From positions 2,903 through 66,902 of the forward strand of contig CAWGVH010000001.1 in the NCBI GenBank assembly GCA_963825995.1: a DNA stretch of 64,000 nucleotides, read 5' to 3'. The position numbers and the translations under genes are program-made. Positions within the stretch are counted from its first letter, which is position 1, and each line of letters begins with the position of its first letter. Source of the stretch: an uncultured Chloroflexia bacterium (lineage in GTDB: Bacteria; Chloroflexota; Limnocylindria; Limnocylindrales; CSP1-4). Shown piece by piece: positions 25,216 through 46,790 of this stretch. Below the pieces are notes generated by a model. The model was not told where the DNA came from, made no database searches, and was given only the letters and a program-made list of their open reading frames with translations.

Positions 25216-25243
25216 CGGTGCGCCTGTAGCCGGACACGACGCC

Positions 25244-28884: not shown

Positions 28885-28955
28885 CGGAGCTCTCAGGGAC
28901 ACCGGGGCGCTGGACCGCCCTGCCCTGACCATCCACCAGGGCCACGGGAATCGAG

Positions 28956-28983
28956 CGAGCCGGCCCCCGAAGGGACCGGCTCG
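28956..28983. terminator. GC-rich hairpin between convergent genes (possible bidirectional terminator)
   Basis: GAGCCGGCCC-CGAA-GGGACCGGCTC: an 11-bp stem with 1 mismatch and a tetraloop. There is no clear U-tract. Confidence 0.3.
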
Positions 28984-29012
28984 ATCGGCAGGGGGAGAGG
29001 GTGGAGGAGCGG

Positions 29013-29579
29013 TCAGCTCAGAGAGGGCGGCAGCATGACCTTCTGGATGACGTGGATGATGCCCTGGTCGCTGGCGCGGATGTCCGTGGCCAGGATGACC
29101 GCGTCGTCGATGCGCAGCTTGCCACCGCGATCGGTGATGGCGGCCTTGTCGCCGTTGAGCATCTCGACCTTGGAGCCGAGTGCAGCGGTGGCCGTCTTGG
29201 CGTTCACCTTGCCGTCGACGACGTGGTAGGCCAGGATGTCGAGCAGGACGCCCTCACCCAGAAGGCTGTCGACGCTGCAGACGTTGCTGGGGTTGAGGCC
29301 GGCCTTGCCAAGGCCGAGGGCATCGCCCAGGCGGCGGAAGGCCGCATCGGTCGGGGCGAAGAGCGTCTTGTCCGGAGAGGACAGCACGTCCACCACGGCA
29401 CCATCGAGGTAGTCGCAGGTGGCAGCGGTCAGGAGCGTGTCGTAGTTGCCGGTTCGGCTGTTCACGGCGATGGCCTTGTCCACGATCGTCGTGCCGGGGG
29501 CGGCCGAGGCGGCGGCCGGGATGATGGCCGTCACGGAGAGGGCGGCCAGCATCGCGCCAGCCATGATCTTCTTCAACAT
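29013..29579 (-). CDS. secreted fasciclin (FAS1) domain protein
   Basis: ORF trimmed to ATG 29579, which has a GGAGG RBS. It has a signal peptide (MLKKIMAGAMLAALSVTAIIPAAASA) and the motifs TLFAPTDAAF and ILAYHVV..G. Confidence 0.85.
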   Translation of the reverse strand: MLKKIMAGAMLAALSVTAIIPAAASAAPGTTIVDKAIAVNSRTGNYDTLLTAATCDYLDGAVVDVLSSPDKTLFAPTDAAFRRLGDALGLGKAGLNPSNVCSVDSLLGEGVLLDILAYHVVDGKVNAKTATAALGSKVEMLNGDKAAITDRGGKLRIDDAVILATDIRASDQGIIHVIQKVMLPPSLS

Positions 29580-29675
29580 CAGGGGTTCCTCCTTGTGGTA
29601 GTCCGTGTCAGTGCTTGAGGTGGACGGAGGCTTGGGAGCGGATGGAAGATCGTCCCCCAAGCCTCCAGTCGTGGC

Positions 29676-30983
29676 CTAGTTGGCCGACGCGTCCTCGACG
29701 AGGATCACGTTGAACGAGCCACCGCTGAGCTGGCCAATGGCCATGGCGCTGTAGCTCTTGCCGGCCTCGAGCGTGAGGGGTTCGATGTCGAAGGCGGCCT
29801 TCTTGGCGCCGGCGGGACGGACCTCGAGGTCGTACTCACCCGCGGGAACGGTGGCGTAGCCCTTGGCCTTGCCGTACTTGAGGTTCTTGAAGATGGCGTC
29901 CTTGACAGCGCTGCCGTCAGGGGCCACGTCGACCTTGGGCGCGTCGGCGCTCAGGTGCACGACGCGGATCTGGGCCTGGTCGGCGACCGGGGCCGGCTTG
30001 TCCGCGACGATGACCGGGGTGATGTTGGCGAGCTCGTTGGTGGCCGCGACGGTCGTCAGGGTGCCGCCCTCGAAGGTGAGCGGGGCATCGATGACCACGG
30101 GGCCCTCCTCGAGCGAAGCGCCCGCGGGAACGACCTGGATCTGATAGGTGCCGGCCGGCACGAAGAGGTAGTCGGAGATGGCGCCGAAGGGGACGTCCGT
30201 GAGGATGGCCCCGCCGTTGGCGTAGACATCGACGTTCGGAGCGTCGGCCGAGAAGTGACCGACACGCACGCCCGCCAGGGCGGCATCGACGGCCGGCACG
30301 ACCGTGAAGCTGCCGTCCTCGAGGCCGCCGACGGCGAACACGGAGTAGCTCGTGCCGGCGTCGAGGGTGACCTCGGGGATGTCGAAGGCGACGGTGTCCG
30401 TACCCGCGGCGCGGATCTCCAGATCGTAGGCGCCAGCCGGCAGGTCGACGTAGCCGGTGTTGTCAGGGAAGGCCAGGCCCTCGATGAGGGCAGCCTCGCC
30501 GTCAGGGGCGATGTCGACGGCCGGGGCGTCGAAGCTGAAGTGGACGACGCGGACCTGGGTGCCATCGGCGTTGGGAGCGGGGGCGTCGGCCAGGACCTGC
30601 GGGATGATCGCGGTGGCAAGGCTGCCGGTGGCGGCCACGGTGGTCATGGTGCCGGCATCGAAGGTGAGGGGTGCGTCGATGACGACGGGGCCCTCCTCCA
30701 GCGTGGCGCCGCTCGGCACGACCTGGATCTGGTACTCGCCACCGGGGACCTCGAGATAGTCCGTGATGCTGGCGTACTCGAGGCCCTCGACGACGAGGTT
30801 GCCGCCGGCGTACACATCGACGGCCGGGGCATCGCCCGCGCCGTGGAGGACGCGAACCTTGGCCATCGCATCGGCCATCTCGTCCTGGGCGCCGACCGCG
30901 GTCGGGACGACGGCTGCGGCCGAGAGGGCAGCAGCGATACCGATGAGCGCGATCTTGCGCCCTCGGGTGGTTGGCTGAGACAT
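29676..30983 (-). CDS. secreted DUF4397 protein (internally duplicated, four DUF4397-like modules)
   Basis: ORF trimmed to ATG 30983, which has an AGGAAG RBS. It has a signal peptide. Four VR(V/G)(L/V)H..(A/F)DAP.VD(V/I) motifs mark four modules that alternate between two types. The matching segments VVPSGATLEEGPVVIDAPLTFDAG and VVPAGASLEEGPVVIDAPLTFEGG lie in the first and third modules. Confidence 0.8.
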   Translation of the reverse strand: MSQPTTRGRKIALIGIAAALSAAAVVPTAVGAQDEMADAMAKVRVLHGAGDAPAVDVYAGGNLVVEGLEYASITDYLEVPGGEYQIQVVPSGATLEEGPVVIDAPLTFDAGTMTTVAATGSLATAIIPQVLADAPAPNADGTQVRVVHFSFDAPAVDIAPDGEAALIEGLAFPDNTGYVDLPAGAYDLEIRAAGTDTVAFDIPEVTLDAGTSYSVFAVGGLEDGSFTVVPAVDAALAGVRVGHFSADAPNVDVYANGGAILTDVPFGAISDYLFVPAGTYQIQVVPAGASLEEGPVVIDAPLTFEGGTLTTVAATNELANITPVIVADKPAPVADQAQIRVVHLSADAPKVDVAPDGSAVKDAIFKNLKYGKAKGYATVPAGEYDLEVRPAGAKKAAFDIEPLTLEAGKSYSAMAIGQLSGGSFNVILVEDASAN

Positions 30984-31090
30984 CTGGGTGACTTCCTTTC
31001 GGGTTGCGACGGTCAAAGATGTGGAGCGGGCCGGCAGTGGCAAGGGGAAGCGCACTGCCGACCCGGTTGGATCAGTGAAGGTTGGCTGGG

Positions 31091-31840
31091 CTAGGCCGCA
31101 GGGGACTCCTCGGCGTCCATCGACTCTTCGGCCATCATGTCGTCGTCAGCCATGAGGCTGGCGTCGACGGCCGGCAGCACCGTGAAGGAGCCGTCAGCCA
31201 GGGAGCCGATGGCGAAGACCGTGAAGCTGTTGCCACCTGCAAGCGCCAGCGGGTCGATGTCGAAGGCGACGTCGGTCGTGCCGGTCGGGCGGATCTCGAG
31301 GTCGTACTCACCCTCGGGCAGGTCAAGGTAGCCGGCCGCGTTCGGGTAGGCGAGGTTCTCGACCACCACGTCACCACCGTCAAGGGCGATGTCGACCGCG
31401 GGGGCGTCAGCGCTGTAGTGGACGACGCGCACTTGGGCGATACCGTCCTGCGGGTTGGGTTCGTCAACAAGGACCTGAGCCTCGATGGAGGCGAGGGCGT
31501 TGGTCGCGGCGACCGTGGTCATGGTGCCAGCGGCGAACTCGAGGTCGACCGGGCCGATGACCGCGCCGTCGGCGGGATCAGCGCCTGCAGCCACGACCTC
31601 GATGGTGTACGTGCCACCGGGAACCTCGAGGTAATCAGAGAGCACGCCGAAGGGGACCTCGGTGAGGATGGCGCCACCGTTGGCGTAGACGTCGACCGCG
31701 GGCGCGTCCGGGCTGAAGTGCCCGACGCGGACCTTGGCCATGTCGGCCATGTCGTCCTGGGCGGCGACGCCGACCGGAAGGACGGAGATGGCCGCAAGGG
31801 CGGCAGCTGCACCAAGGATCGAGAGCTTCGTGGTTCGCAT
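31091..31840 (-). CDS. secreted DUF4397 protein (two modules) with acidic C-terminal tail
   Basis: ORF trimmed to ATG 31840, which has an AGGAA RBS. It has a signal peptide and is a paralog of the 29676..30983 product (AKVRVGHFSPDAPAVDVYANGGAILTEVPFG..). Confidence 0.8.
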   Translation of the reverse strand: MRTTKLSILGAAAALAAISVLPVGVAAQDDMADMAKVRVGHFSPDAPAVDVYANGGAILTEVPFGVLSDYLEVPGGTYTIEVVAAGADPADGAVIGPVDLEFAAGTMTTVAATNALASIEAQVLVDEPNPQDGIAQVRVVHYSADAPAVDIALDGGDVVVENLAYPNAAGYLDLPEGEYDLEIRPTGTTDVAFDIDPLALAGGNSFTVFAIGSLADGSFTVLPAVDASLMADDDMMAEESMDAEESPAA

Positions 31841-32047
31841 GGTTCGTTCCTTTCCATGAGTGTTGGTCACTGATGTGAGCCTGTGGCTCGAAGCGGCGAG
31901 CCTGGAGGCCCACCGGCGGGGCGGTCGAGGCGCGCTGCGCCCCTTGCGTGGGCCCCTAGCGGGACCACCTGTCGGTCATGTCGTTGTCTCCTCGCTCTGC
32001 TCTCCTGTTCAAGGTCTGTTGACCTGATGGAGCAGACGATACCCGTG

Positions 32048-32125: not shown

Positions 32126-33043
32126 ATGTACAGCATCAAGCAAGCTTCAATCCGCTCTGGCGTCAGCGTTCCGCTCATCCGGGCGTGGGAGCGCCGCTAC
32201 GGCGTGGTCAGCCCTAAGCGCACGCCATCCGGCTACCGGCTCTACGACGACGAGGCCATCGCCACCCTCGTGCGCGTGCGGGAGCTGACCGATAGCGGGT
32301 GGGGTGCCAGCGAGGCCAGTCGAGCCATCCTGGCCGGCGAGGTTGGGGTGATGCCCATCGTCCAAATGGCTCCCGTCCCCCTGGGCGACGGGTCCGCACG
32401 CACGCGTCAGGCAGACCTCAACGGGCGGTTCCTGGCAGCCGCAACGGCCATGGACATCGCCGGGACGGGCGCCGTGCTTGACGAGATCCTCGCGCAGGGA
32501 TCGTTCGAGTCCGTCGTCGACGATCTGCTCATGCCGGCCCTCGCGTCACTCGGTCTGGCCTGGACGGAGGGCCGGCTGGACGTCGCGGCGGAGCATGCCG
32601 CAAGCGCCGCTGTCCATCGCCGGCTGTCTGCACTGTACGAGGCGGCCGCGGTCATCGGTGACGTCAGCGTCGTCGTTGGCCTGCCGCCAGAGGGCCGCCA
32701 CGAGCTGGGTGCGCTCGCGTTCGCCGTGGCGCTGCGGCGCCTGGGGGTCGGCGTGCTGTACCTCGGTGCGGACGTGCCCGCCGCCAGCTGGGTGCACGTC
32801 ATCCGGCAGCATCGTGCTCGTGTCGTGGTTCTGGCTGTTGTCCAGGATTCCGACCAGCGTAGGGCGCTCGAGGTTGCAGACGCGCTGCGCGCCGCAGGCC
32901 AGAGCCTCGTCTTCGCGGTCGGTGGCCGCAGCGCCAGATGGGACGGGACGCGGGAAGCCGGTATCGTGGTGCTGCCGGACCGCATCAACGAGGCGGCCGC
33001 GGTGACGGCCAGGCTCGCAGCAGGGTCAGTCGCGGCACGGTAG
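32126..33043 (+). CDS. MerR-family transcriptional regulator with C-terminal cobalamin-binding domain (CarH/LitR-type light-responsive repressor)
   Basis: The N-terminal MerR HTH is YSIKQASIRSGVSVPLIRAWERRYGVVSPKRTPSGYRLYDDEAI. The helical-bundle motif WTEGRLDVAAEH has W-x9-EH spacing. The B12-binding Rossmann segment is VVVGLPPEGRHELGALAFAVALRRLGVGVLYLGADVP. Confidence 0.85.
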   Translation: MYSIKQASIRSGVSVPLIRAWERRYGVVSPKRTPSGYRLYDDEAIATLVRVRELTDSGWGASEASRAILAGEVGVMPIVQMAPVPLGDGSARTRQADLNGRFLAAATAMDIAGTGAVLDEILAQGSFESVVDDLLMPALASLGLAWTEGRLDVAAEHAASAAVHRRLSALYEAAAVIGDVSVVVGLPPEGRHELGALAFAVALRRLGVGVLYLGADVPAASWVHVIRQHRARVVVLAVVQDSDQRRALEVADALRAAGQSLVFAVGGRSARWDGTREAGIVVLPDRINEAAAVTARLAAGSVAAR

Positions 33044-33890: not shown

Positions 33891-35584
33891 ACGGGATGGC
33901 CGATCGCAGAAGCCCGGCCCCGTCGGTGCGGACCCGCGTGCAGGGACTCATCGAGCAGGCGCTGCGCCACGCTGTCGAATCGGGTGCCTTGCCGGAGCCA
34001 GGGCCCCGGCAGGCGCCGGAGGTGGAGGTCGAGCGGCCCGCCAATCCGGAGCACGGCGACCTGGCCACCAACCTGGCCATGAAGCTGGCTCGGCCGATGC
34101 GGCGGTCGCCACTGCAGATCGCGGAGGCGCTGGCGGCCAGCCTGCGTGCCCAGTCCACCGGTATCGCCATCAACGACGTGCAGGTGGCCGCGCCCGGCTT
34201 CCTCAACTTGCGCCTCTCGCCCACCTGGCTCGAGGCCGTGCTTGACGAGGCTCTGATGGCCGGACAGGACTTCGGGAGAGTCCGGCCGGAAACCCCGCGG
34301 CACGTGAACGTGGAGTTCGTCTCGGCCAACCCCACGGGCCCCCTGACCGTCGGTAACGCACGCGGCGCCTTCGTCGGCGATCTCCTCTGCCGCGTGCTGG
34401 AAGGCGGCGGTCATCGCGTCACCCGCGAGTACTACTTCAATGACTCGGGCCGCCAAGTCCGGGTGCTCGGCGCTTCCGTGGTCGCCCGTCGGCTCGGACA
34501 ACCGCTGCCAGAGGAGGCGTACCGTGGCAGCTACGTGGACGAGCTGGCCGCGGCCATGCCGGACCACGTCTGGGAGGCCGCCTCAGCTCCGGGCGTCGAT
34601 CGTGATGCTCGCATCGGCGACTGGGCTGGGTCCCAGATCCGCGATGGCATCGAAGCCAGCCTCGAGCGGCTCGGTGTGCACTTCGACGTCTGGAAGAGCG
34701 AGGCGAGCCTGTACGGGGAGGGCTGGGTGGAACGCGCCGTGGCCACGCTGCGCGAGGGCGGCCACGTCTTCGAGTCGGAGGGCGCCACGTGGTTTCGCTC
34801 GACGGCATTCGGCGACGACAAAGACCGCGTCATCTTCCGCTCCTCTGGTGAACCCACCTACTTCGCGTCCGACATCGGCTACGTCTCGGAGAAGTTCAGC
34901 CGCGGCTTCGACAAGCTCATCTACGTGTGGGGTGCCGACCACCACGGGACTGTGGCGCGCGTCCGCAACGCGGCGGAGGCCTTGGGCTTCGACAGGGAGG
35001 CCGTGGAGATGCTCATGGTGGCCTGGGTGCGCTTCGTGCGCGAGGGCCAGGAGATCCCCATGAGCAAGCGATCCGGTGAGTTCCTGACGCTCGACGAGCT
35101 GCTCGAAGAGATCGGGGTTGACGCCGCACGCTGGTCGTTCGCCTCCCGATCGGCAAGCTCGCCCATCGACGTGGACATCGAGCTGGCGCGCCGCCAGTCA
35201 TCCGAGAACCCCGTCTACTACGTGCAGTACGCCCACGCCAGGATCTGTTCGATCCTCTCCAAGGCGACAGCGGTGGGTCTGGCGCGAGCCACGTCGTTCC
35301 GCGGCGTGCTGGCTGACGACGACGTGGCGGCCGGACTGGCACGCGACCTGCTGCGGTTGCCCGAGGTCGTGGAGGACGCGGCGCGCTCGGAGGAGGCGCA
35401 GGGCGTGACCGCGTACGCCACGGAGTTGGCTACCACGTTCCATGCCTTCTACCGAGACCGTCGAGTCATCGACGTCGACGACCCGGCCACCTCGGCTGGC
35501 CGCCTGGCGCTCATCGACCTGGCGCGCTCGGTCATCGGCAACACCCTGGCCCTGCTGGGCATCTCGGCACCAGCGGCCATGTGA
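33887..35584 (+). CDS. argS: arginine--tRNA ligase
   Basis: Class I signatures are present: SANPTGPLTVGNARG (HIGH-like region), YYFNDSGRQV, and MSKRSG (KMSKS). Confidence 0.93.
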   Translation: MNGMADRRSPAPSVRTRVQGLIEQALRHAVESGALPEPGPRQAPEVEVERPANPEHGDLATNLAMKLARPMRRSPLQIAEALAASLRAQSTGIAINDVQVAAPGFLNLRLSPTWLEAVLDEALMAGQDFGRVRPETPRHVNVEFVSANPTGPLTVGNARGAFVGDLLCRVLEGGGHRVTREYYFNDSGRQVRVLGASVVARRLGQPLPEEAYRGSYVDELAAAMPDHVWEAASAPGVDRDARIGDWAGSQIRDGIEASLERLGVHFDVWKSEASLYGEGWVERAVATLREGGHVFESEGATWFRSTAFGDDKDRVIFRSSGEPTYFASDIGYVSEKFSRGFDKLIYVWGADHHGTVARVRNAAEALGFDREAVEMLMVAWVRFVREGQEIPMSKRSGEFLTLDELLEEIGVDAARWSFASRSASSPIDVDIELARRQSSENPVYYVQYAHARICSILSKATAVGLARATSFRGVLADDDVAAGLARDLLRLPEVVEDAARSEEAQGVTAYATELATTFHAFYRDRRVIDVDDPATSAGRLALIDLARSVIGNTLALLGISAPAAM

Positions 35585-37022
35585 AGAGGCCGGCGTGGGG
35601 CCCAGCCTCGAATGATGCGCTGACGCCGCTCCGGCGACAGGGTCGCCGCTGGGGCTAAGGAGCCAGCCCGAGGGCAGCCTTCACGTTCGCGAGCGTGTTC
35701 GGGTCGCTGGTCAGGAGCACCAGCGCTGGATCGGAGATGCCGGTCGAGACATCGGCGGCGATCACGGCATGGGCTCCTGGCAGGTCGGCGATGGCGGCAT
35801 TGGCCGCCTCCACGAACTGGCCCACGTCCTCGGGGCTGTCCCACTTCGTCTGCCAGACGATTGCCCACGTTCCGTCGGGGCCGTCGAGGCTGACGAGGCG
35901 GTCACCGCCCCAGCCGGCCGCGGCGTTGGCCTTGGGCAGCTCGATCGGAGCCTTCGGACCTTCCTGCGTGCCCGGCTGGCCATCGGCCAGCCAGACGGCG
36001 ATGCGGAGCTCGCCCATCGTCTCTCGCCAGGCCTCCACCCAGCCTGCTCCGAGCCGACCGGCGAGGTCGCCGAGGTCGATGGACGTGGGTCGCTCACCCG
36101 GGTAGAGCTTGGGATGCAGGATCTGCTCGGTCGATTCTGGTGGGCTGGCCCAGGCGTTATTGACGCTGGCCCAGCCACCGGCTTCCCGAAGCCGATCAAC
36201 GAAGAGGCGACCTTCAAGGAATGGGAGGTTGTACTCCCGCTGGAGGATCTGCGGCAGGGAGGCGAGGGTGCCGTCGTCGCCCGGTACGATGACATCTTCT
36301 ACCTTGGACTGGTTGCCTGGCGCGATGTTCGAGGCCGCCCAATCAAGCATGACGGCGGTGCCATCACCCTGCTCGAGGGCCAAGCCGGCGAGAGCCTGGT
36401 CGCCCATGGCTGGGTCACTCACGCGGACGCGGCTGATCCCGATCTGCTGGTCGACGGCCGTGCGGCCGAACTCACGCGCCGCGTTGGCCTCGTCGCCGAT
36501 GGTGAGCTTCTCGAGCGAGTTCAGGACTGTCAGGTTGCCACCTCCGGCCTGGTACGCGACCGAGAGCTCCTGGCCGTAGAGCCGGTCGAGCAGGGAGGCC
36601 AGATCGTCGCCTGGTCCGAGCAGGCCGAGGCGCTTGAGCGTCTTGTCTTCGCCGGCGACGGAGGCGGGGTCATGCACGATCTGCGAGCGAGGGCTGAGCA
36701 GTGCCTTCTGGTCAGCGTTGCCGACAGCGTCATATGGGACGGCTCCCAGCGGGAGCTCACGGACGGTCGGGATGGCCGCCGCCGCCGCATCCAGCTGGCC
36801 GCTTACGGTCGGGTTCTGGAGGGTGCCGCCGGCACCCAGTGGCTGGATGGGCGGGCCCAGCGAGACAACGTAGGCGACCGGGCTGTCCTTGATGACCACG
36901 GTGCCCGGCTGCGGATCCTGGGAGAGGACGACACCGTTCGGAACGGCTGGGTCATTGACCTCCGACCGCGCGCCCGGTGTGACCTCGGCAGCCGCAAGCG
37001 TGGCCTGGGCATCCGCCTCCGC

Positions 37023-38470
37023 GAGGCCCACGATGGCGGGCACGCTGACCTGCTTGGGACCCTTGCTGACGGTGAGGGTGACGGCCGAGCCGGTCTGCAC
37101 CTCGCTGCCCGCGGCGGGCTCGGTCTTGACGGCCTGGCCGGCGGGGACCGTGGCGTTGGTCTTCTGCTCGGTGGCGCCCACGACGAGGCCGGCGGCCGCG
37201 ATGGCGGCGTTGGCGTCGGCCTCAGCGAGGCCCTTGACCTCGGGCACGAGGGTGAGCGGCGGGCCGGAGCTGACGCTGTAGTTCACCGCGCTGCCCGCGG
37301 CGACCGTGCTGTCGGGTGGCGGATCCTGGGCGAGGACGGTGTTCTTGGGGCTGGCGTCCTCGACGACGGTCGAGGTGCCCACGCTGAGCTCGGCAGCCTC
37401 GATGGCGGCCTTGGCGTCGGGCTGCAGGAGGCCCACGATGGCGGGCACGCTGACCTGCTTGGGACCCTTGCTGACGGTGAGGGTGACGGCCGAGCCGGTC
37501 TGCACCTCGCTGCCCGCGGCGGGCTCGGTCTTGACGGCCTGGCCGGCGGGGACCGTGGCGTTGGTCTTCTGCTCGGTGGCGCCCACGACGAGGCCGGCGG
37601 CCGCGATGGCGGCGTTGGCGTCGGCCTCAGCGAGGCCCTTGACCTCGGGCACGAGGGTGAGCGGCGGGCCGGAGCTGACGCTGTAGTTCACCGCGCTGCC
37701 CGCGGCGACCGTGCTGTCGGGTGGCGGATCCTGGGCGAGGACGGTGTTCTTGGGGCTGGCGTCCTCGACGACGGTCGAGGTGCCCACGCTGAGCTCGGCA
37801 GCCTCGATGGCGGCCTTGGCGTCGGGCTGCAGGAGGCCCACGATGGCGGGCACGCTGACCTGCTTGGGACCCTTGCTGACGGTGAGGGTGACGGCCGAGC
37901 CGGTCTGCACCTCGCTGCCCGCGGCGGGCTCGGTCTTGACGGCCTGGCCGGCGGGGACCGTGGCGTTGGTCTTCTGCTCGGTGGCGCCCACGACGAGGCC
38001 GGCGGCCGCGATGGCGGCGTTGGCGTCGGCCTCAGCGAGGCCCTTGACCTCGGGCACGAGGGTGAGCGGCGGGCCGGAGCTGACGCTGTAGTTCACCGCG
38101 CTGCCCGCGGCGACCGTGCTGTCGGGTGGCGGATCCTGGGCGAGGACGGTGTTCTTGGGGCTGGCGTCCTCGACGACGGTCGAGGTGCCCACGCTGAGCT
38201 CGGCAGCCTCGATGGCGGCCTTGGCGTCGGGCTGCAGGAGGCCCACGATGGCGGGCACGCTGACCTGCTTGGGACCCTTGCTGACGGTGAGGGTGACGGC
38301 CGAGCCGGTCTGCACCTCGCTGCCCGCGGCGGGCTCGGTCTTGACGGCCTGGCCGGCGGGGACCGTGGCGTTGGTCTTCTGCTCGGTGGCGCCCACGACG
38401 AGGCCGGCGGCCGCGATGGCGGCGTTGGCGTCGGCCTCAGCGAGGCCCTTGACCTCGGGCACGAGGGTGA
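37023..38470. repeat. tandem repeat, 405-bp unit x about 3.6 (each unit encodes two different PASTA domains)
   Basis: Antisense ORFs at 37306, 37711 and 38116 (the first two 126 aa, the third 195 aa) share an identical N-terminal sequence of about 115 aa. The protein segment TLVPEVKGLAEADANAAI...SSGPPL repeats exactly. Confidence 0.9.
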
Positions 38471-38675
38471 CGCTTGTGCCCGCCGAGACGTACAGCGCGA
38501 CCTCCGAGCCGAGCGAGATCTCTTCATCGGCAGCCGGAACGGTCTTGATGGCGTCGCCCACAGCGACGTCTTCATTGCTCTGCTCGATGGTTTCTCCGAC
38601 GACCAGCCCGGCGTCCTCGATGGCCGCGACCGCATCAGCCTCTGAGAGGTCACGCACCGCGGGGACGGCCACGTT

Positions 38676-41600
38676 CGGCTCGACGCCCAGGCTCACGAGG
38701 TAGCTGACGGTGCTCCCCACGGCCACGCTGCTGCCGGGCTCGGGATCCTGGCTCACGACGTCACCGGCGGGCACGTCGGCGCTGTAGGCCTCGCTGGGGG
38801 CGCCGCTGAGGCGGGCGTCGGCGAGGGCCTGCTCGGCCTCGGAGGCGGGCGCGCTCGTGAGGTCGGGCACCGTGACCTGCTCGACGCCCAGGCTCACGAG
38901 GTAGCTGACGGTGCTCCCCACGGCCACGCTGCTGCCGGGCTCGGGATCCTGGCTCACGACGTCACCGGCGGGCACGTCGGCGCTGTAGGCCTCGCTGGGG
39001 GCGCCGCTGAGGCGGGCGTCGGCGAGGGCCTGCTCGGCCTCGGAGGCGGGCGCGCTCGTGAGGTCGGGCACCGTGACCTGCTCGACGCCCAGGCTCACGA
39101 GGTAGCTGACGGTGCTCCCCACGGCCACGCTGCTGCCGGGCTCGGGATCCTGGCTCACGACGTCACCGGCGGGCACGTCGGCGCTGTAGGCCTCGCTGGG
39201 GGCGCCGCTGAGGCGGGCGTCGGCGAGGGCCTGCTCGGCCTCGGAGGCGGGCGCGCTCGTGAGGTCGGGCACCGTGACCTGCTCGACGCCCAGGCTCACG
39301 AGGTAGCTGACGGTGCTCCCCACGGCCACGCTGCTGCCGGGCTCGGGATCCTGGCTCACGACGTCACCGGCGGGCACGTCGGCGCTGTAGGCCTCGCTGG
39401 GGGCGCCGCTGAGGCGGGCGTCGGCGAGGGCCTGCTCGGCCTCGGAGGCGGGCGCGCTCGTGAGGTCGGGCACCGTGACCTGCTCGACGCCCAGGCTCAC
39501 GAGGTAGCTGACGGTGCTCCCCACGGCCACGCTGCTGCCGGGCTCGGGATCCTGGCTCACGACGTCACCGGCGGGCACGTCGGCGCTGTAGGCCTCGCTG
39601 GGGGCGCCGCTGAGGCGGGCGTCGGCGAGGGCCTGCTCGGCCTCGGAGGCGGGCGCGCTCGTGAGGTCGGGCACCGTGACCTGCTCGACGCCCAGGCTCA
39701 CGAGGTAGCTGACGGTGCTCCCCACGGCCACGCTGCTGCCGGGCTCGGGATCCTGGCTCACGACGTCACCGGCGGGCACGTCGGCGCTGTAGGCCTCGCT
39801 GGGGGCGCCGCTGAGGCGGGCGTCGGCGAGGGCCTGCTCGGCCTCGGAGGCGGGCGCGCTCGTGAGGTCGGGCACCGTGACCTGCTCGACGCCCAGGCTC
39901 ACGAGGTAGCTGACGGTGCTCCCCACGGCCACGCTGCTGCCGGGCTCGGGATCCTGGCTCACGACGTCACCGGCGGGCACGTCGGCGCTGTAGGCCTCGC
40001 TGGGGGCGCCGCTGAGGCGGGCGTCGGCGAGGGCCTGCTCGGCCTCGGAGGCGGGCGCGCTCGTGAGGTCGGGCACCGTGACCTGCTCGACGCCCAGGCT
40101 CACGAGGTAGCTGACGGTGCTCCCCACGGCCACGCTGCTGCCGGGCTCGGGATCCTGGCTCACGACGTCACCGGCGGGCACGTCGGCGCTGTAGGCCTCG
40201 CTGGGGGCGCCGCTGAGGCGGGCGTCGGCGAGGGCCTGCTCGGCCTCGGAGGCGGGCGCGCTCGTGAGGTCGGGCACCGTGACCTGCTCGACGCCCAGGC
40301 TCACGAGGTAGCTGACGGTGCTCCCCACGGCCACGCTGCTGCCGGGCTCGGGATCCTGGCTCACGACGTCACCGGCGGGCACGTCGGCGCTGTAGGCCTC
40401 GCTGGGGGCGCCGCTGAGGCGGGCGTCGGCGAGGGCCTGCTCGGCCTCGGAGGCGGGCGCGCTCGTGAGGTCGGGCACCGTGACCTGCTCGACGCCCAGG
40501 CTCACGAGGTAGCTGACGGTGCTCCCCACGGCCACGCTGCTGCCGGGCTCGGGATCCTGGCTCACGACGTCACCGGCGGGCACGTCGGCGCTGTAGGCCT
40601 CGCTGGGGGCGCCGCTGAGGCGGGCGTCGGCGAGGGCCTGCTCGGCCTCGGAGGCGGGCGCGCTCGTGAGGTCGGGCACCGTGACCTGCTCGACGCCCAG
40701 GCTCACGAGGTAGCTGACGGTGCTCCCCACGGCCACGCTGCTGCCGGGCTCGGGATCCTGGCTCACGACGTCACCGGCGGGCACGTCGGCGCTGTAGGCC
40801 TCGCTGGGGGCGCCGCTGAGGCGGGCGTCGGCGAGGGCCTGCTCGGCCTCGGAGGCGGGCGCGCTCGTGAGGTCGGGCACCGTGACCTGCTCGACGCCCA
40901 GGCTCACGAGGTAGCTGACGGTGCTCCCCACGGCCACGCTGCTGCCGGGCTCGGGATCCTGGCTCACGACGTCACCGGCGGGCACGTCGGCGCTGTAGGC
41001 CTCGCTGGGGGCGCCGCTGAGGCGGGCGTCGGCGAGGGCCTGCTCGGCCTCGGAGGCGGGCGCGCTCGTGAGGTCGGGCACCGTGACCTGCTCGACGCCC
41101 AGGCTCACGAGGTAGCTGACGGTGCTCCCCACGGCCACGCTGCTGCCGGGCTCGGGATCCTGGCTCACGACGTCACCGGCGGGCACGTCGGCGCTGTAGG
41201 CCTCGCTGGGGGCGCCGCTGAGGCGGGCGTCGGCGAGGGCCTGCTCGGCCTCGGAGGCGGGCGCGCTCGTGAGGTCGGGCACCGTGACCTGCTCGACGCC
41301 CAGGCTCACGAGGTAGCTGACGGTGCTCCCCACGGCCACGCTGCTGCCGGGCTCGGGATCCTGGCTCACGACGTCACCGGCGGGCACGTCGGCGCTGTAG
41401 GCCTCGCTGGGGGCGCCGCTGAGGCGGGCGTCGGCGAGGGCCTGCTCGGCCTCGGAGGCGGGCGCGCTCGTGAGGTCGGGCACCGTGACCTGCTCGACGC
41501 CCAGGCTCACGAGGTAGCTGACGGTGCTCCCCACGGCCACGCTGCTGCCGGGCTCGGGATCCTGGCTCACGACGTCACCGGCGGGCACGTCGGCGCTGTA

Positions 41601-42493
41601 GGCCTCGCTGGGGGCGCCGCTGAGGCGGGCGTCGGCGAGGGCCTGCTCGGCCTCGGAGGCGGGCGCGCTCGTGAGGTCGGGCACCGTGACCTGCTCGACG
41701 CCCAGGCTCACGAGGTAGCTGACGGTGCTCCCCACGGCCACGCTGCTGCCGGGCTCGGGATCCTGGCTCACGACGTCACCGGCGGGCACGTCGGCGCTGT
41801 AGGCCTCGCTGGGGGCGCCGCTGAGGCGGGCGTCGGCGAGGGCCTGCTCGGCCTCGGAGGCGGGCGCGCTCGTGAGGTCGGGCACCGTGACCTGCTCGAC
41901 GCCCAGGCTCACGAGGTAGCTGACGGTGCTCCCCACGGCCACGCTGCTGCCGGGCTCGGGATCCTGGCTCACGACGTCACCGGCGGGCACGTCGGCGCTG
42001 TAGGCCTCGCTGGGGGCGCCGCTGAGGCGGGCGTCGGCGAGGGCCTGCTCGGCCTCGGAGGCGGGCGCGCTCGTGAGGTCGGGCACCGTGACCTGCTCGA
42101 CGCCCAGGCTCACGAGGTAGCTGACGGTGCTCCCCACGGCCACGCTGCTGCCGGGCTCGGATCCTGGCTCACGACGTCACCGGCGGGCACGTCGGCGCTG
42201 TAGGCCTCGCTGGGGGCGCCGCTGAGGCGGGCGTCGGCGAGGGCCTGCTCGGCCTCGGAGGCGGGCGCGCTCGTGAGGTCGGGCACCGTGACCTGCTCGA
42301 CGCCCAGGCTCACGAGGTAGCTGACGGTGCTCCCCACGGCCACGCTGCTGCCGGGCTCGGGATCCTGGCTCACGACGTCACCGGCGGGCACGTCGGCGCT
42401 GTAGGCCTCGCTGGGGGCGCCGCTGAGGCGGGCGTCGGCGAGGGCCTGCTCGGCCTCGGAGGCGGGCGCGCTCGTGAGGTCGGGCACCGTGAC
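38676..42493. repeat. tandem repeat, 201-bp unit x 19 (one 67-aa PASTA domain per unit), apparently identical copies apart from one 1-nt deletion and the last codon
   Basis: The unit starts CTCGACGCCCAGGCTCACGAGG and ends ..GGGCACCGTGACCTG. Successive unit starts at 38880, 39081 and 39282 are 201 bp apart. The protein unit is VTVPDLTSAPASEAEQALADARLSGAPSEAYSADVPAGDVVSQDPEPGSSVAVGSTVSYLVSLGVEQ. Confidence 0.92.
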
Positions 42494-42694
42494 CTGCTCG
42501 GGTGCGATGGCGACATCGACGTCCACCCTGGACCCGCCCAGCACCATCGTGCCCGCTGCCGGGTCCTGATCGAGGATGGTGTTGGGCTCCACCTCGGTGG
42601 TCTCCAGAGAGGTGGTCCCGAGAACTAGACCCAGGGAATCCGCTTCCGTCTGGGCGTCCGCCAGCATCATGCCCTCGAATGTCGGCACGGCGAC

Positions 42695-43510
42695 CAGCGC
42701 GGGGCCCGAGGAGACGACGTAGGCGACGGCCGAGAGGCGGGCCACCTCGGTGGCGGCCACGGGGTTCGAGCTGATGACGTTGCCCGCCACGATGCTGGCG
42801 TCGCTGGCTTGGGTGCGGGTGCCGGCCGCCAGGCCGGCGTCGGCGAGGGCCTTGAGAGCCTCGCTCTCGGGCAGGTCGATGATGTCGGGCACGGCGACCA
42901 GCGCGGGGCCCGAGGAGACGACGTAGGCGACGGCCGAGAGGCGGGCCACCTCGGTGGCGGCCACGGGGTTCGAGCTGATGACGTTGCCCGCCACGATGCT
43001 GGCGTCGCTGGCTTGGGTGCGGGTGCCGGCCGCCAGGCCGGCGTCGGCGAGGGCCTTGAGAGCCTCGCTCTCGGGCAGGTCGATGATGTCGGGCACGGCG
43101 ACCAGCGCGGGGCCCGAGGAGACGACGTAGGCGACGGCCGAGAGGCGGGCCACCTCGGTGGCGGCCACGGGGTTCGAGCTGATGACGTTGCCCGCCACGA
43201 TGCTGGCGTCGCTGGCTTGGGTGCGGGTGCCGGCCGCCAGGCCGGCGTCGGCGAGGGCCTTGAGAGCCTCGCTCTCGGGCAGGTCGATGATGTCGGGCAC
43301 GGCGACCAGCGCGGGGCCCGAGGAGACGACGTAGGCGACGGCCGAGAGGCGGGCCACCTCGGTGGCGGCCACGGGGTTCGAGCTGATGACGTTGCCCGCC
43401 ACGATGCTGGCGTCGCTGGCTTGGGTGCGGGTGCCGGCCGCCAGGCCGGCGTCGGCGAGGGCCTTGAGAGCCTCGCTCTCGGGCAGGTCGATGATGTCGG
43501 GCACGGCGAC
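42695..43510. repeat. tandem repeat, 204-bp unit x 4 (one 68-aa PASTA domain per unit)
   Basis: The protein unit VAVPDIIDLPESEALKALADAGLAAGTRTQASDASIVAGNVISSNPVAATEVARLSAVAYVVSSGPAL occurs four times exactly. GCAGGTCGAT recurs at 42871 and 43075. Confidence 0.9.
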
Positions 43511-44475
43511 GGTTGGCGTCGCCACAGCGACGGACAGCTCGATGGTGGACCCGACAGGCACGGCTTGGCCGGGAGGCGGTTGCTGACCCAGCACCGTGCC
43601 GGGCTCCACGTCGTCGTTCTCGACCGAGACGACCCGAACGACGAGCCCGTAATCATCGGCCGTGAGCTCGGCCTCCTCGAGGCTGAGGCCCTGGAAGTTG
43701 GGCGTGTCGACCACCGCTTCAGCCGACGGAGTCGCGCTGGGGACCTCGGTCACGACCGGCGAGGGTGACAGGGTCACGTCCGGCGAGCCGGAGTCGAAGG
43801 GGCGGAAGAGGAGGATGACGATGGCGAGCGCCACGATGAAGGCGCCCACGAGGATGCCCCCCACGAGCAGCACGGGCGTGCCCTCGTCTGGCGGCTCGCC
43901 GTCCATGCCGGGCGGTGGCAGAGGCGGGCCGTCAGGCGGTTCGATCGTCACCTCTGGCCTGGCGGCCAGCGCAGCCAGGGCGGCCTCAGTGGCTTCCGGG
44001 TCGGGGGCCACGGGCGTCGTCGTCCAGGCTGCGACGCCAGTCGCGGCGGCCATGCCGGCGCCTCCATCAGCAGCCAGGCCGGCCTCGTCCGCCAGATCGT
44101 CGGCAGGGTCCGGCCCAGCGGCCACGGCGTCCGGGTCCGCGGCCCCAGCCTCGAACTCTCCGGCGTCCTCGTCAGATCCGACGACAGCCTCCGACGGGTC
44201 CTCGTTATCTGACAGAGGGGGTCCGGCATCTGGGCCGGACGGCTGACCGGCGACTGCCTTGACCTCCGTCGGGTCAGACGCAGCTGCAAGTGGATCAGTG
44301 GAGGCAGTGGGGTCGCCGGGGTCCGGCCGCTGATCAGTCATGGCAGGCGGACCTTAGGTGACTTCGGCTCTGCGTGCGAGCACCCTGCGTGAGTCGATTG
44401 GGTCGTTCCCGGCACAAGTGTCCGAATTCTTCATCGTCCGCCGCTCCTCGCTTCACGTGCCCACAGGCCGACGGA

Positions 44476-45819
44476 TCAGGGCAAGACACCAAGGGCCGTT
44501 TCGACAGTATCGAGCGTCGCGTCGCTGTCGGCCAGCAGGACAAGTACTGGAGAGGATAGTCCTCCGCTCAGGTCGGCATTCGAGACTGCCTGGGCCCCGG
44601 ACAGATCTCGCATGGCATCGCGGGCGGCTTCCTTGAACTCCCTGGCGTCAGCCTGGCTGTCCCAGTCGGTCTGCCAGACGACGGCCCAGGTACCTTCCGG
44701 CCCATCAAGGCTCACCAAGCGGTCACCACCCCAACCGGCGGCCGCGTCAGCGCGCGGCAGGCGGGGCGGCAGGACCGGGAAGAGCGACCGCGCCTTCTGA
44801 CCATCCGCCACCCACACGCCGATCTGCATCTCGCCCAGGGTCTGCTCGTAGGAGGTCGTCCAGTCGGGGCCAAGCATTGCTTCCACATCCGGCAGTGCGA
44901 CCTCGATCGGGGTCTCGTCGGGGTAGAGCTCAGGGTGCATGATCTGCTCGGTCGAGACCGGCTGTGCCTGCCAGGCCTCATCCACGGCCGGCCAGTCGCC
45001 ACGGCCCCGGATGGCATTCACGAAGGCGAAGCCGTCGATGTAGGGGAACTCCAACTGCCGGCGCATCAGGACCGGCATCTCTCGCAGCACCTTGCTGTCC
45101 TGCCTCGTGAGCGCGCCCGCGGACACGGCCAGCAGGTCGGCCAGCTTGAGTTGGCGGGCCGCCCAGTCGTACATGATGGCGGTGGCATCGCCCTCGACCA
45201 ACGCCTGCTGAGCGAGGATGGCGTCCGACTGGTCCAGCTGCCTGATGCGGCGGGCCTCCAGGTCGTATGCCGCGTCCTGGAGGGCGTGCTCATACTCGTG
45301 GGCGACGACGACCAATTCGAGCGCCCCGATCTTGCGAGCCGGGCCGATGAGCGAGAACGTATCCGACCTCGGGTCGTAGTACGCCAGCACCTGGGCGTCG
45401 TACAGCGAGAGGGTCAGCTCACCCAGGTCGTCGTCCGGATCGATCAGCCCGAGGCGTGTGAGGGCAGCATCCTCGGCCGCGACGTCGGCGTCCGTGTATT
45501 CCTCGCGGAAGAGAGCTTCCAGTTCAGCCGTGAAGGTGCCGGCGTCGATGACGCGGTACTTGACGCCGTCGGCCGGCGGGAGGCCGCGGATGGGAGGCAC
45601 GGAGTCGATGACCGCGTTCACCCGCCTGACCATCCTGGCGTTGAAGCCATCCGGCAGCGACGCGGCCTCGCCCGAGGAGGCCGGCGTGGACGCATCCTGT
45701 GCTGAGGCGAGGCCTGACGGGGCGAGCGCAAGCAGGGCGAGGGACAGGGCCAGTGCGGCGGGGCGGGCGAGCCACGACCGGCGCAGCGCCGACGCGGAGC
45801 GACTGACGATGGCTGTCAT
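44476..45819 (-). CDS. secreted HExxH (zinc metallopeptidase-like) protein, paralog of the C-terminal domain of the giant PASTA protein
   Basis: Signal peptide MTAIVSRSASALRRSWLARPAALALSLALLALAPSGLASA (start ATG 45819 or 45828). The HExxH motif is intact (VVAHEYEHALQD). The C-terminus AAGWGGDRLVSLDGPEGTWAVVWQTDWDS matches the giant protein's AAGWGGDRLVSLDGPDGTWAIVWQTKWDS. Confidence 0.8.
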   Translation of the reverse strand: MTAIVSRSASALRRSWLARPAALALSLALLALAPSGLASAQDASTPASSGEAASLPDGFNARMVRRVNAVIDSVPPIRGLPPADGVKYRVIDAGTFTAELEALFREEYTDADVAAEDAALTRLGLIDPDDDLGELTLSLYDAQVLAYYDPRSDTFSLIGPARKIGALELVVVAHEYEHALQDAAYDLEARRIRQLDQSDAILAQQALVEGDATAIMYDWAARQLKLADLLAVSAGALTRQDSKVLREMPVLMRRQLEFPYIDGFAFVNAIRGRGDWPAVDEAWQAQPVSTEQIMHPELYPDETPIEVALPDVEAMLGPDWTTSYEQTLGEMQIGVWVADGQKARSLFPVLPPRLPRADAAAGWGGDRLVSLDGPEGTWAVVWQTDWDSQADAREFKEAARDAMRDLSGAQAVSNADLSGGLSSPVLVLLADSDATLDTVETALGVLP

Positions 45820-46026
45820 GTCGCGCATTCTGACAGCGTTGGCGCGAGGCTCCTTGGGGACCGCCCCCGGCACCCCCAGGGGGTCTGTGCGAGGTCACCC
45901 GTGTGGGCGCCGACAGCCGGTGTGCGTTTCTTCATCGTTCGAGGGCTGGCGCCTTCATCGTCGAGGGCTACTCTTTCGCTCACGGAACCGCGAAGCATCC
46001 CTTCACAGTTCCCTCTCCCTCCCTCT

Positions 46027-46065
46027 GGAACGAGGGGCGCCGATTGGGCAGGCGCCCCTCGTTCC
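46027..46065. other. perfect 15-bp-stem hairpin (GGAACGAGGGGCGCC - 9 nt loop - GGCGCCCCTCGTTCC) in a divergent intergenic region
   Basis: Read directly from the sequence. It is followed on the plus strand by CTTTATGTGT. It lies 30 nt upstream of the ATG at 46095. Confidence 0.6.
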
Positions 46066-46094
46066 CTTTATGTGTCCTGCGTGTGGCACCATCC

Positions 46095-46790
46095 ATGGTC
46101 ATGGAGATCACCTGGTTCGGCGCGTCGTGTGTTCGACTGAAGGGTCGAGAGGGAGTCGTCGCGGCGGATCCATTCCGTTCCATCGTGGGACCGACCGGTC
46201 GCGGCATCACGGCTGACATCGTCTCGTACGGCTACCCCGACGAGTCAGAGGTGGTCGGGCGCGGCGCAAGGTCCAAGGCCGACGTGGTCTCGCGCCAGCT
46301 GGGCGTGCCGCTGCCGAGCAGCCTCGAGTCGGCGTACGTCCTCAATTCGCCGGGTGAGTTCGAGGTGCACGACGTGATGGTCATCGGCGCCCGCACCTTC
46401 CGGGACGCCGAGCGTGGTGGCAGGCGCGGTCCGAGTACGGCGTTCGTGTACGAGCTTGATGGCATCTATACGGCGCACCTGGGCGACATCGGGCACGTGC
46501 TCGACGCCGACACCATCCGCGAGATCGGCCACGTGGACATCGTCTGCCTCGGGATCGGCCCACAGCTCAGCGCGGCCCAAGCCGCAGAGGTCATCACCCA
46601 GCTGGACGCGGCCATGGTCGTGCCGATGCCCCTGACAGACGCCGCGGCGGCCACAGATGGCGACCTGGCACGGTTCCTCAAGGAGATGAGCACCAGTCAC
46701 CCGCAATCTGTCCCACGGCTGAACGTGACGATCTCGTCGCTGCCGGCCGAGACCACGATCGTCATGCTGGAGCAGCGCGGCAAGACCTGA
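46095..46790 (+). CDS. MBL-fold metal-dependent hydrolase (UlaG/YtkL-like)
   Basis: ORF 45903..46790 trimmed to ATG 46095 (MVMEITWFGASCVRLKG..). ..YTAHLGDIGH.. and ..VDIVCLGIG.. are typical of this small MBL family. Confidence 0.7.
   Translation: MVMEITWFGASCVRLKGREGVVAADPFRSIVGPTGRGITADIVSYGYPDESEVVGRGARSKADVVSRQLGVPLPSSLESAYVLNSPGEFEVHDVMVIGARTFRDAERGGRRGPSTAFVYELDGIYTAHLGDIGHVLDADTIREIGHVDIVCLGIGPQLSAAQAAEVITQLDAAMVVPMPLTDAAAATDGDLARFLKEMSTSHPQSVPRLNVTISSLPAETTIVMLEQRGKT

Follow-up and report, generated by a model that had tools for sequence, protein, structure and literature searches.

A secreted DUF8575 protein with an intact HExxH motif and a degenerate paralogue on a giant PASTA stalk at one locus of an uncultured Limnocylindria-type bacterium

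The locus and its two genes

The window analysed here is a stretch of 64,000 nucleotides (nt) from an uncultured Chloroflexota (Limnocylindria-type) bacterium (contig CAWGVH010000001.1), in which two neighbouring genes encode related proteins of a zinc-protease-like family. One gene encodes a secreted protein with an intact HExxH motif. The other encodes a giant membrane protein that ends, behind a long stalk of PASTA domains, in a homologous domain where the residues of the putative active site have been replaced and the other family motifs have been kept. The locus very probably consists of an intact enzyme plus a conserved pseudoenzyme paralogue. The genes are arranged as follows (ORF, open reading frame; aa, amino acids):

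44476..45819, minus strand: soluble DUF8575 gene, HExxH intact, product of 447 aa when read from ATG 45819, stop at 44476
35655..44341, minus strand: giant stalk-protein gene, two ORFs in the window, one ORF of 2,895 aa once 1 nt is restored
42110..44341, minus strand: N-terminal ORF of the giant gene, 743 aa
35655..42143, minus strand: C-terminal ORF of the giant gene, 2,162 aa

Translation of the soluble gene may start at ATG 45819 (447 aa), at ATG 45828 or at GTG 45873 (465 aa); the gene calls of the orthologues P0001 and P0002 use the start equivalent to 45819. The residue numbers given below for this protein (H192, E227, Y278) are those of the 465-aa form. Proteins and loci of related genomes are designated by P and L numbers, respectively.

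When the soluble protein (465 aa) was compared by BLASTP with the C-terminus of the giant protein, 151 of 388 positions were found to be identical (39%, E 4e-87, 2 gaps). A preliminary description of this DNA had the soluble product aligning along its length with the last ~470 aa of the giant protein; the homology holds, over the shorter length of ~388 aa, and the three example blocks that were quoted for it are all present in the translations. The segment HEYEHALQD stands opposite REFGRTAVD without a gap, as had been proposed, and ALVEGDATA stands opposite ALEQGDGTA, so that no segment retaining the His residues faces HEYEH.

Both domains belong to the Pfam family DUF8575 (PF26686), according to precomputed matches on homologues that are 88-100% identical to each domain, namely P0001, which shares 88% identity with the soluble protein, and P0121, which shares 100% with the degenerate domain. 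The soluble protein gave no match in a local Pfam scan, for which a copy of Pfam predating PF26686 was used.

The secreted protein

The following features were recognized in the product of the soluble gene:

45700..45819, minus strand: signal peptide MTAIVSRSASALRRSWLARPAALALSLALLALAPSGLASA, read from the translation, cleavage probably before QD, no lipobox Cys
45286..45300, minus strand: HEYEH (H192, E193, H196), putative zinc-binding and catalytic motif, invariant in ~350 intact members, predicted helix 126-145
45193..45195, minus strand: E227 of LVEGDAT, candidate for the third metal ligand as in gluzincins, present in all (100%) intact members, next long helix 158-183
45040..45042, minus strand: Y278 of the FPY motif, family-invariant Tyr and candidate catalytic helper, Y in 96-100% of intact members

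The signal peptide ends in …LALLALAPSGLASA before QD and is of the typical cleavable type, in agreement with the secretion assumed earlier. Export by the twin-arginine translocation (Tat) pathway was also considered, as RRSWL looks Tat-like in the window; since an RR motif occurs in just 9 of 141 orthologues, Tat export is unsupported as a feature of the family and was rejected. The codons of HEYEH are CAC GAG TAT GAG CAC.

The AlphaFold2 (AF2) model of the mature soluble protein reached a pLDDT of 91.6 and a pTM of 0.90. In this model short strands precede the helices of HEYEH and of the Glu, and a conserved alpha/beta part follows them. HExxH is thus predicted on an alpha-helix and the Glu ligand on the next helix, which is the arrangement that defines zincins of the gluzincin type. 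The best match in the PDB found by Foldseek was 3CMN (probability 1.0, E 2.3e-3, TM-score 0.39 by query and 0.51 by target, root mean square deviation 7.3 A). This structure, of Caur_0242 from Chloroflexus aurantiacus, is functionally uncharacterised; it is listed as SCOP d.92.1.16, zincin-like (Lenart et al. 2013, PMC3650047), and the matched segment scores as Pfam Zincin_2 (PF10103, formerly DUF2342).

The two proteins show HExxH and the (I/V)EG helix that follows it in collinear order. A profile of the catalytic region aligns HExxH with HEMTH and lvEGDA with LIEGYG of 3CMN, with a weak E of 0.2. Against PDB sequences the soluble protein gave no match in a single-sequence search, and profiles gave sub-significant matches (E 0.2-0.9). 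DUF8575 also differs from 3CMN in the spacing from HExxH to the Glu, which is ~31 residues in the former and ~79 in the latter, and in an extra conserved C-terminal alpha/beta part (GWGGD...WD). Neither domain reached the gathering score of Zincin_2, and no Pfam match to it was obtained at E <= 1 for either of them. Weak matches to Zn_peptidase_2 were seen in 30 of 62 members.

On the basis of the model helices, the match to 3CMN, the collinear profile and the weak Zn_peptidase_2 matches, the HExxH of the soluble protein is predicted to stand in a zincin-like context with a third ligand of the gluzincin type. The modelled fold is therefore consistent with the metallopeptidase-like character suggested in the preliminary description, and the motif falls within the moderate match to a zincin-like fold. 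As no characterised peptidase was matched in the fold search with this model, we speak of a putative peptidase. Since the secreted protein keeps the full putative catalytic set (H192, E193, H196, E227 and Y278), we take it to be, most likely, an active hydrolase or peptidase that depends on zinc and works outside the membrane.

Loss of the catalytic set in the stalk-tip domain

In the domain at the end of the stalk the corresponding positions are occupied as follows:

36462..36476, minus strand: REFGR replacing HExxH, codons CGT GAG TTC GGC CGC, RExxR conserved across the clade
36369..36371, minus strand: Q replacing the ligand Glu (LEQGDGT), Q in 90% of the RExxR clade
36219..36221, minus strand: F replacing the invariant Tyr (LPF against FPY of intact members), F in 88% of the RExxR clade

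Among 193 homologues aligned with the two window domains, all 144 soluble-type sequences carried HExxH plus the Glu, and the PASTA-linked clade was found to have RE(F/L)xR, usually together with Q. RExxR is shared by 46-48 orthologues, against HExxH in ~350 other family members, and for this reason the substitution is not due to chance. We also compared ~350 intact sequences with the RExxR clade (48 sequences) column by column. Conservation in the distant intact members reaches at least 90% in ~43 columns. Those in which the RExxR clade clearly departs are only H192, H196, L198 and Q199 of the HExxHxLQD helix, E227 and A230 of the EGDA motif and Y278 of the FPY motif, the changes including H192 to R, H196 to R, E227 to Q, A230 to G and Y278 to F. 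In addition D200 and F276 are about half kept and A393 also differs. The clade retains every other conserved column, among them R96, Y166, D217, G228-D229, STEQxxHP, GE, GWxGD and WD, and since these family-invariant motifs are kept the loss is limited to the set of putative metal-binding and catalytic residues. The Tyr that is invariant in intact members and Phe in the degenerate clade is therefore likely to be a fourth catalytic-site residue of DUF8575.

It had been noted before that both metal-binding His are replaced by Arg. This is correct, and incomplete, since E227 has also become Q and Y278 has become F, with the Glu of HExxH being kept. From the codons (CAC against CGT and CGC) it follows that His to Arg is a one-step change, and this replacement is over-represented at the substituted sites of zincins (Lenart et al. 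2013, PMC3650047).

The ratio of nonsynonymous to synonymous substitution (dN/dS) between the degenerate domain and six relatives is 0.14-0.41, and for the soluble gene it is 0.11-0.28, both rough figures because dS is near saturation. The AF2 model of the degenerate domain has a pLDDT of 94.4 and the same order of secondary structure elements as the soluble copy. A fold search with this model was dominated by the PASTA unit included in it, matching the PASTA structures of PknB and PrkC; it did not recover 3CMN and gave no information on the zincin part.

Both models (m006dfc552a05 and m9a2afbed1b26) also gave weak Foldseek matches (probability ~0.85, TM-score <0.4) to 4ESQ, the extracellular sensor domain of Mycobacterium tuberculosis PknH, and to 7CU8, which is TiME. 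It may be the conserved C-terminal alpha/beta part that gives rise to these matches.

Where a zincin has HExxH and a Glu ligand, the stalk copy has REFGR and Q, and with its catalytic set replaced it cannot bind zinc in the canonical way. The other family motifs are kept under purifying selection, and the domain is therefore to be regarded as a conserved pseudoenzyme, in which catalytic loss, purifying selection and a confident model go together with an intact paralogue next door. The claim that this copy is catalytically dead is thus supported: the putative His ligands, the putative Glu ligand and the Tyr are all gone, yet the domain is under purifying selection and confidently modelled.

One could suppose that the RExxR domain is still an enzyme, with a metal-independent or Arg-assisted chemistry, because its replacement residues are themselves conserved in the clade (the two Arg in 96-100% of members, the Glu in 94% and the Gln in 90%). 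However, distant members of the degenerate clade vary at the site (GEAGK, GQADT, VALAE and REAAH), so that it is not under one common constraint, the helper Tyr is lost as well, and His to Arg or Lys is a recurrent change in inactive zincins (PMC3650047). We consider such a chemistry extremely improbable.

The closest analogies in working mode to the conserved pseudoenzyme would be the zincins with substituted sites and the degenerate LytM regulators considered below, neither of which is homologous in the relevant sense. In the former, such as inactive ADAMs and CLCA, the His of HExxH are likewise replaced by Arg or Lys in a non-random manner that is conserved within clades, and roles as decoys or as accessory proteins for active paralogues have been suggested for them (PMC3650047). 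The window locus differs from these cases in having the intact paralogue next door, a fusion to a stalk of 34 PASTA domains and a visible series from intact to dead copies.

The giant stalk protein

The giant gene encodes a membrane protein of type II, in which a disordered cytoplasmic tail is followed by one transmembrane (TM) helix, ~34 PASTA domains and a C-terminal DUF8575 domain. Its features are:

43805..43873, minus strand: TM helix VLLVGGILVGAFIVALAIVILLF, residues 157-179, preceded by a tail of 156 aa rich in A, P, D and G
36846..43711, minus strand: 34 PASTA domains (residues 211-2499), some of them near-identical tandem copies, Pfam PF03793, counted with the hidden Markov model on the repaired ORF
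35658..36845, minus strand: degenerate C-terminal DUF8575 domain, ~396 aa, recognized by BLASTP to the soluble paralogue, AF2 pLDDT 94.4, dN/dS 0.14-0.41
37023-38470, 38678-42500 and 42679-43510: tandem PASTA-coding arrays of near-identical nucleotide copies
42159..42160, minus strand: frameshift site, GGATCCGAG against GGATCCCGAG in 18 other repeat copies, one C missing from a CCC run

The PASTA stalk described earlier was recovered with PF03793, which matches the N-terminal ORF in 8 stretches (E 1.5e-78) and matches again near the C-terminus (E 1.4e-22). In the N-terminal ORF of 743 aa no kinase or penicillin-binding protein (PBP) domain was found in Pfam, PASTA alone being significant, and the PASTA kinase model NF033483 matches via the PASTA part only, with 94 bits against a cut-off of 450. 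The protein is comparable to the PASTA Ser/Thr kinases PknB, PrkC and StkP and to class B PBPs (PBP2x) in having extracytoplasmic PASTA repeats after a single TM helix. Unlike these it is devoid of a kinase or transpeptidase, has a low-complexity cytoplasmic tail of 156 aa and carries a pseudo-zincin at its distal end; and whereas the usual number of PASTA units in kinases and PBPs is 1-5, here there are 34.

Tandem Repeats Finder identified arrays of 3.6 x 405 bp (37023-38470, 100% matches), 19 x 201 bp (38678-42500, 99%) and 4.1 x 204 bp (42679-43510, 99%), and the number of PASTA units per orthologue ranges from 11 to 38. The near-identity of the repeat copies and this range imply that the PASTA array is being expanded and homogenised rapidly, either by very recent expansion or by concerted evolution.

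The preliminary description speaks of one giant protein. In the window the gene is split into two ORFs, which overlap inside the tandem repeat, and a single ORF of 2,895 aa is obtained when one C is restored at 42159-42160. The break, together with the dead active site, might be taken to mean that the giant gene is a decaying pseudogene without function, and the stalk gene is indeed fragmented in several related long-read assemblies. Against this, the break consists of a single C missing from a homopolymer within a 19-copy repeat (99% matches) of which 18 copies read CCC, and the stalk ORF is unbroken in L005 (2,621 codons) and L007 (3,226 codons), both lengths being from stop to stop. Moreover the C-terminal domain, which lies beyond the break, has the low dN/dS given above and the conserved RExxR, and the soluble gene is fragmented too in L002 and L010, which points to indel errors of assembly. 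Decay of the gene is therefore highly improbable, and this reading was rejected. Because of the unbroken ORFs and the fragmentation of both genes in other assemblies, the break is treated as what it probably is, a homopolymer error of long-read sequencing and not a pseudogenisation.

The DUF8575 family and its relatives

The DUF8575 profile matches 11,949 clusters at 50% identity (E <= 1e-3). In species-representative genomes at least 596 loci were found, mostly in Chloroflexota, with further ones in Sumerlaeota, Haliangiales, Krumholzibacteriia, Isosphaeraceae, Gaiellales and others. A lipobox or a TM helix anchors most relatives at the cell surface.

Both window proteins are homologous to the Hvo_1808 family of surface proteins of NCBIfam (NF038145, an equivalog model), yet they stand outside the equivalog, since the soluble protein scores 157.7 bits and the degenerate domain 85.3 bits against a cut-off of 200. 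Hvo_1808 is a Tat lipoprotein of Haloferax volcanii that has served as a model for lipidation and to which no function has been assigned (PMC2945643). The two groups are alike in that Hvo_1808 is a lipoprotein and most DUF8575 relatives are surface-tethered; they are unlike in the scores of the window proteins, in the PASTA fusion and in the degenerate clade.

A search of the literature retrieved no paper on DUF8575 and no paper linking PASTA to Limnocylindria, zincins or pseudoenzymes, and the combination of a PASTA fusion with a degenerate clade is not described in any paper found.

Evolution at the syntenic slot

The gene pair of the window recurs in related genomes. In the window and in L001 (the same as L008), L002, L003, L004, L005, L007, L010 and L015 a soluble gene that is intact lies immediately upstream of a stalk gene with a dead domain, which makes nine distinct loci, and one metagenome-assembled genome is split over L006 and L013. 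The co-occurrence that the preliminary description proposed to look for is thus seen, with an exception in L085. In all nine distinct loci examined that have the soluble neighbour, the stalk copy is dead, and in both loci with an intact stalk copy whose upstream side can be checked (L087 and L088) there is no soluble neighbour.

The slot lies between Lactamase_B_3 and the arginyl-tRNA synthetase gene (ArgRS). With the identity of ArgRS to that of the window as a yardstick, its occupants form the following series:

L011, 9776-11182, ArgRS 61%: 469-codon ORF with lipobox, Pro/Thr linker and intact DUF8575, without PASTA
L087, 6198-11227, ArgRS 67%: TM helix, PASTA array and intact HEYDH/E/FPY, without soluble gene
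L088, 5492-11833: as L087, with TM helix, PASTA array and intact enzyme, without soluble gene
L086, ArgRS 70%: PASTA-linked intact HEYDH followed by convergent ArgRS, on a 2.9-kb contig that ends before the upstream side
L085, 10001-14416, ArgRS 70%: TM helix, 11 PASTA and a degenerate domain that reads GQADT and has Gly in place of the ligand Glu, without soluble gene within 10 kb
Pair clade, ArgRS 74-85%: secreted intact gene plus a stalk gene with 30-38 PASTA and RExxR

A neighbour-joining tree with 100 bootstraps included 16 degenerate copies, among them those with GEAGK, GQADT, VALAE and the half-degenerate REVDH; P0341, a similar half-degenerate copy (REAAH), is not among the sequences of the tree. 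All 16 fall in one clade (97% bootstrap), and support reaches 100% both for the RExxR clade and for the soluble clade. A single degenerate clade indicates one ancient loss of the site in the PASTA-stalked lineage; multiple independent losses had been considered and were rejected on the same ground. The catalytic positions have drifted in some branches and have been fixed as RExxR, Q and F in the branch with the soluble neighbour. The variants of the degenerate clade, with their residue at the position of the ligand Glu, are REVDH in P0239 (D), REAAH in P0341 (A), GEAGK and GQADT in P0226 and P0227 (G) and VALAE in P0256 (A). Read as a sequence series, they suggest that Arg may have replaced the first His before the other changes, and that the site then drifted outside the RExxR branch.

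The intergenic region

The two genes are separated by a spacer:

44342..44475, minus strand: conserved intergenic region of 134 nt in front of the giant gene, of which it may be the promoter or 5' leader

More than 30 contiguous nt of this spacer (GGAGCGGCGGACGATGAAGAA...) are invariant in six genomes (window, L001, L003, L004, L005 and L007), though the flanking genes have a dS of ~1. A related motif, GTGAAGAA..ACAC, stands upstream of the stalk gene in L085 and L087, both of which are without the soluble gene. No match to the region was found in Rfam. RNAalifold pairs GCGGCGGAC with GTCCGCC beside the start codon, with almost no covariation. A promoter and terminator scan of 35400-46300 gave no sigma-70-like sites and no minus-strand terminator between the two genes, a result that speaks neither for nor against co-transcription. 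The spacer may be the promoter or the translational leader of the stalk gene itself.

In L085 (9825-9875) and L087 (6068-6118) a perfect hairpin, GAACGAGG(A/G)GCGCC...GGCGC(T/C)CCTCGTTC, followed by GAGGGAGGGAGAGGGAACC, is found in the gap that separates the stalk gene from the divergent Lactamase_B_3 gene. The window spacer keeps only a similar left half of it (GAAGCGAGGAGCG).

The relationship between the two proteins

Given the recurrence of the pair, the dead domain might be a direct partner of the enzyme, docking the secreted paralogue as a heterodimer and thereby re-tethering, activating or inhibiting it at the tip of the stalk. Degenerate LytM (dLytM) factors such as EnvC, NlpD and ActS regulate cell-wall amidases, and they offer a possible analogy: in both systems zinc ligands have been lost from a domain of metallopeptidase fold that is kept in the envelope, and the non-catalytic role of dLytM is coupled to an active hydrolase. 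They differ in that dLytM has the M23/LytM fold, its partner enzymes are not paralogues and it has no PASTA stalk. A partnership of this kind would agree with the dead stalk copy in 9 of 9 distinct loci with a soluble gene, with the largely parallel branching order of the soluble and dead clades, and with the family's conserved surface motifs that the dead copy retains; the soluble form is moreover a derived state, as elsewhere the family is tethered by a lipobox or TM helix. However, parallel trees are expected from shared descent alone, the dead stalk of L085 has no adjacent soluble gene, and dimerisation of DUF8575 proteins would be a further assumption. We regard direct docking as rather unlikely.

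The opposite view, that the two genes are independent, would make their adjacency a relic of tandem duplication and the dead domain a structural cap or wall-anchoring end of the PASTA fibre, unrelated to the substrate of the enzyme. Tandem duplicates of DUF8575 do occur elsewhere, as in L080 (490-3465), where HExxH/E is kept in both copies, and duplication in this family therefore recurs without loss of the site. The stalk gene also has its own conserved upstream element, and in L085 the dead stalk stands alone. Against independence, the pair has been kept down to ~60% protein identity in the dead domain, with dS ~1, and a mere cap would not need the other retained motifs, the losses being limited to catalytic residues. 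As already mentioned, intact stalk copies with a checkable upstream side have no soluble neighbour. The strict correlation of the soluble neighbour with a dead stalk copy disfavours independence, which we hold to be quite unlikely.

Our overall reading is that a tethered enzyme has probably given rise to two proteins, a free catalyst and a stalk whose tip binds and does not catalyse. The normal state of the family would be a hydrolase tethered by a lipobox, by a TM helix or by a TM helix with a PASTA array, and the ancestor at this locus would have been such a surface-tethered active enzyme. In the present lineage the function would then have been divided, with catalysis supplied by the secreted paralogue. 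The dead domain at the stalk tip would keep its fold and binding groove and serve as a non-catalytic binding module, either for the substrate or ligand of the family or for the enzyme itself, and the PASTA stalk would hold it far from the membrane. The division of labour in this specific form, with its binding role, can be put forward only tentatively, and the same applies to the substrate-binding or inhibitor-like role suggested for the dead copy in the preliminary description. A more elaborate version, which we find doubtful, is a hitherto undescribed surface system of two parts, in which the pseudo-zincin at the tip of a PASTA 'line' (34+ domains without kinase or PBP, possibly >100 nm) would catch either a ligand from peptides or the cell wall or the secreted paralogue, the chemistry being left to the free paralogue.

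Several points weigh against the splitting of a tethered enzyme as we describe it. Putative zinc binding and peptidase activity rest on the motif and on a resemblance of fold, and the match to 3CMN is moderate (TM-score 0.39 by query, 0.51 by target), with 3CMN itself being a protein without known function. The near-saturated dS makes the estimates of selection approximate. The sister placement of the soluble and dead clades is weak (31-34% bootstrap). The dead stalk of L085, although a single such case, has no soluble paralogue within 10 kb, and a catalyst next door is therefore not an absolute requirement for the role of the dead domain. Judging from the conserved intergenic element, the stalk gene seems to be under regulation of its own and not part of an operon with the soluble gene. 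The last two points argue against an obligatory operonic pair.

Pseudo-peptidase paralogues as a phenomenon are already known. New are the family, a giant stalk of PASTA domains that lacks kinase and PBP, the adjoining secreted intact paralogue and the stepwise series that can be read at one locus. DUF8575, with its ~12,000 clusters at 50% identity in several phyla and in haloarchaea, gains a first functional hypothesis, namely that its members are zincin-like hydrolases tethered at the surface, with a candidate catalytic tetrad of H, H, E and Y. At one syntenic locus the domain is found intact in a lipoprotein, intact on a PASTA stalk, dead on a stalk, and dead on a stalk with a secreted intact paralogue beside it, and these four natural variants make the role of the dead peptidase domain directly testable. 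PASTA arrays are also seen not to be restricted to kinases and PBPs, forming here a giant, rapidly expanding stalk. If the two-part surface system were true, it would constitute a new functional class of PASTA protein and a rare case where the steps from enzyme to pseudoenzyme receptor are readable at one syntenic locus. The organisms are uncultured, and the system is described here from sequences and models.

Neighbouring genes

The gene order in the window is FTCD, Lactamase_B_3, the soluble DUF8575 gene, the stalk gene, the convergent ArgRS, a gene of metallo-beta-lactamase fold, a MerR/B12 regulator, DUF4397 genes and glycosyltransferases. The regulator, which lies downstream of ArgRS and the metallo-beta-lactamase-fold gene (32126-33040, plus strand), is a MerR HTH fused to B12-binding domains, an architecture like that of CarH, and this arrangement is conserved in L001-L003.

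A further conserved block (25196-31870) comprises two DUF4397 proteins, a UDP-glycosyltransferase and a large GT4 glycosyltransferase. In relatives the block also includes a fasciclin-domain protein, whose counterpart in the window, the ORF at 29001-29615, gave no Pfam match. The block of DUF4397 and glycosyltransferase genes may represent a cell-envelope gene neighbourhood.

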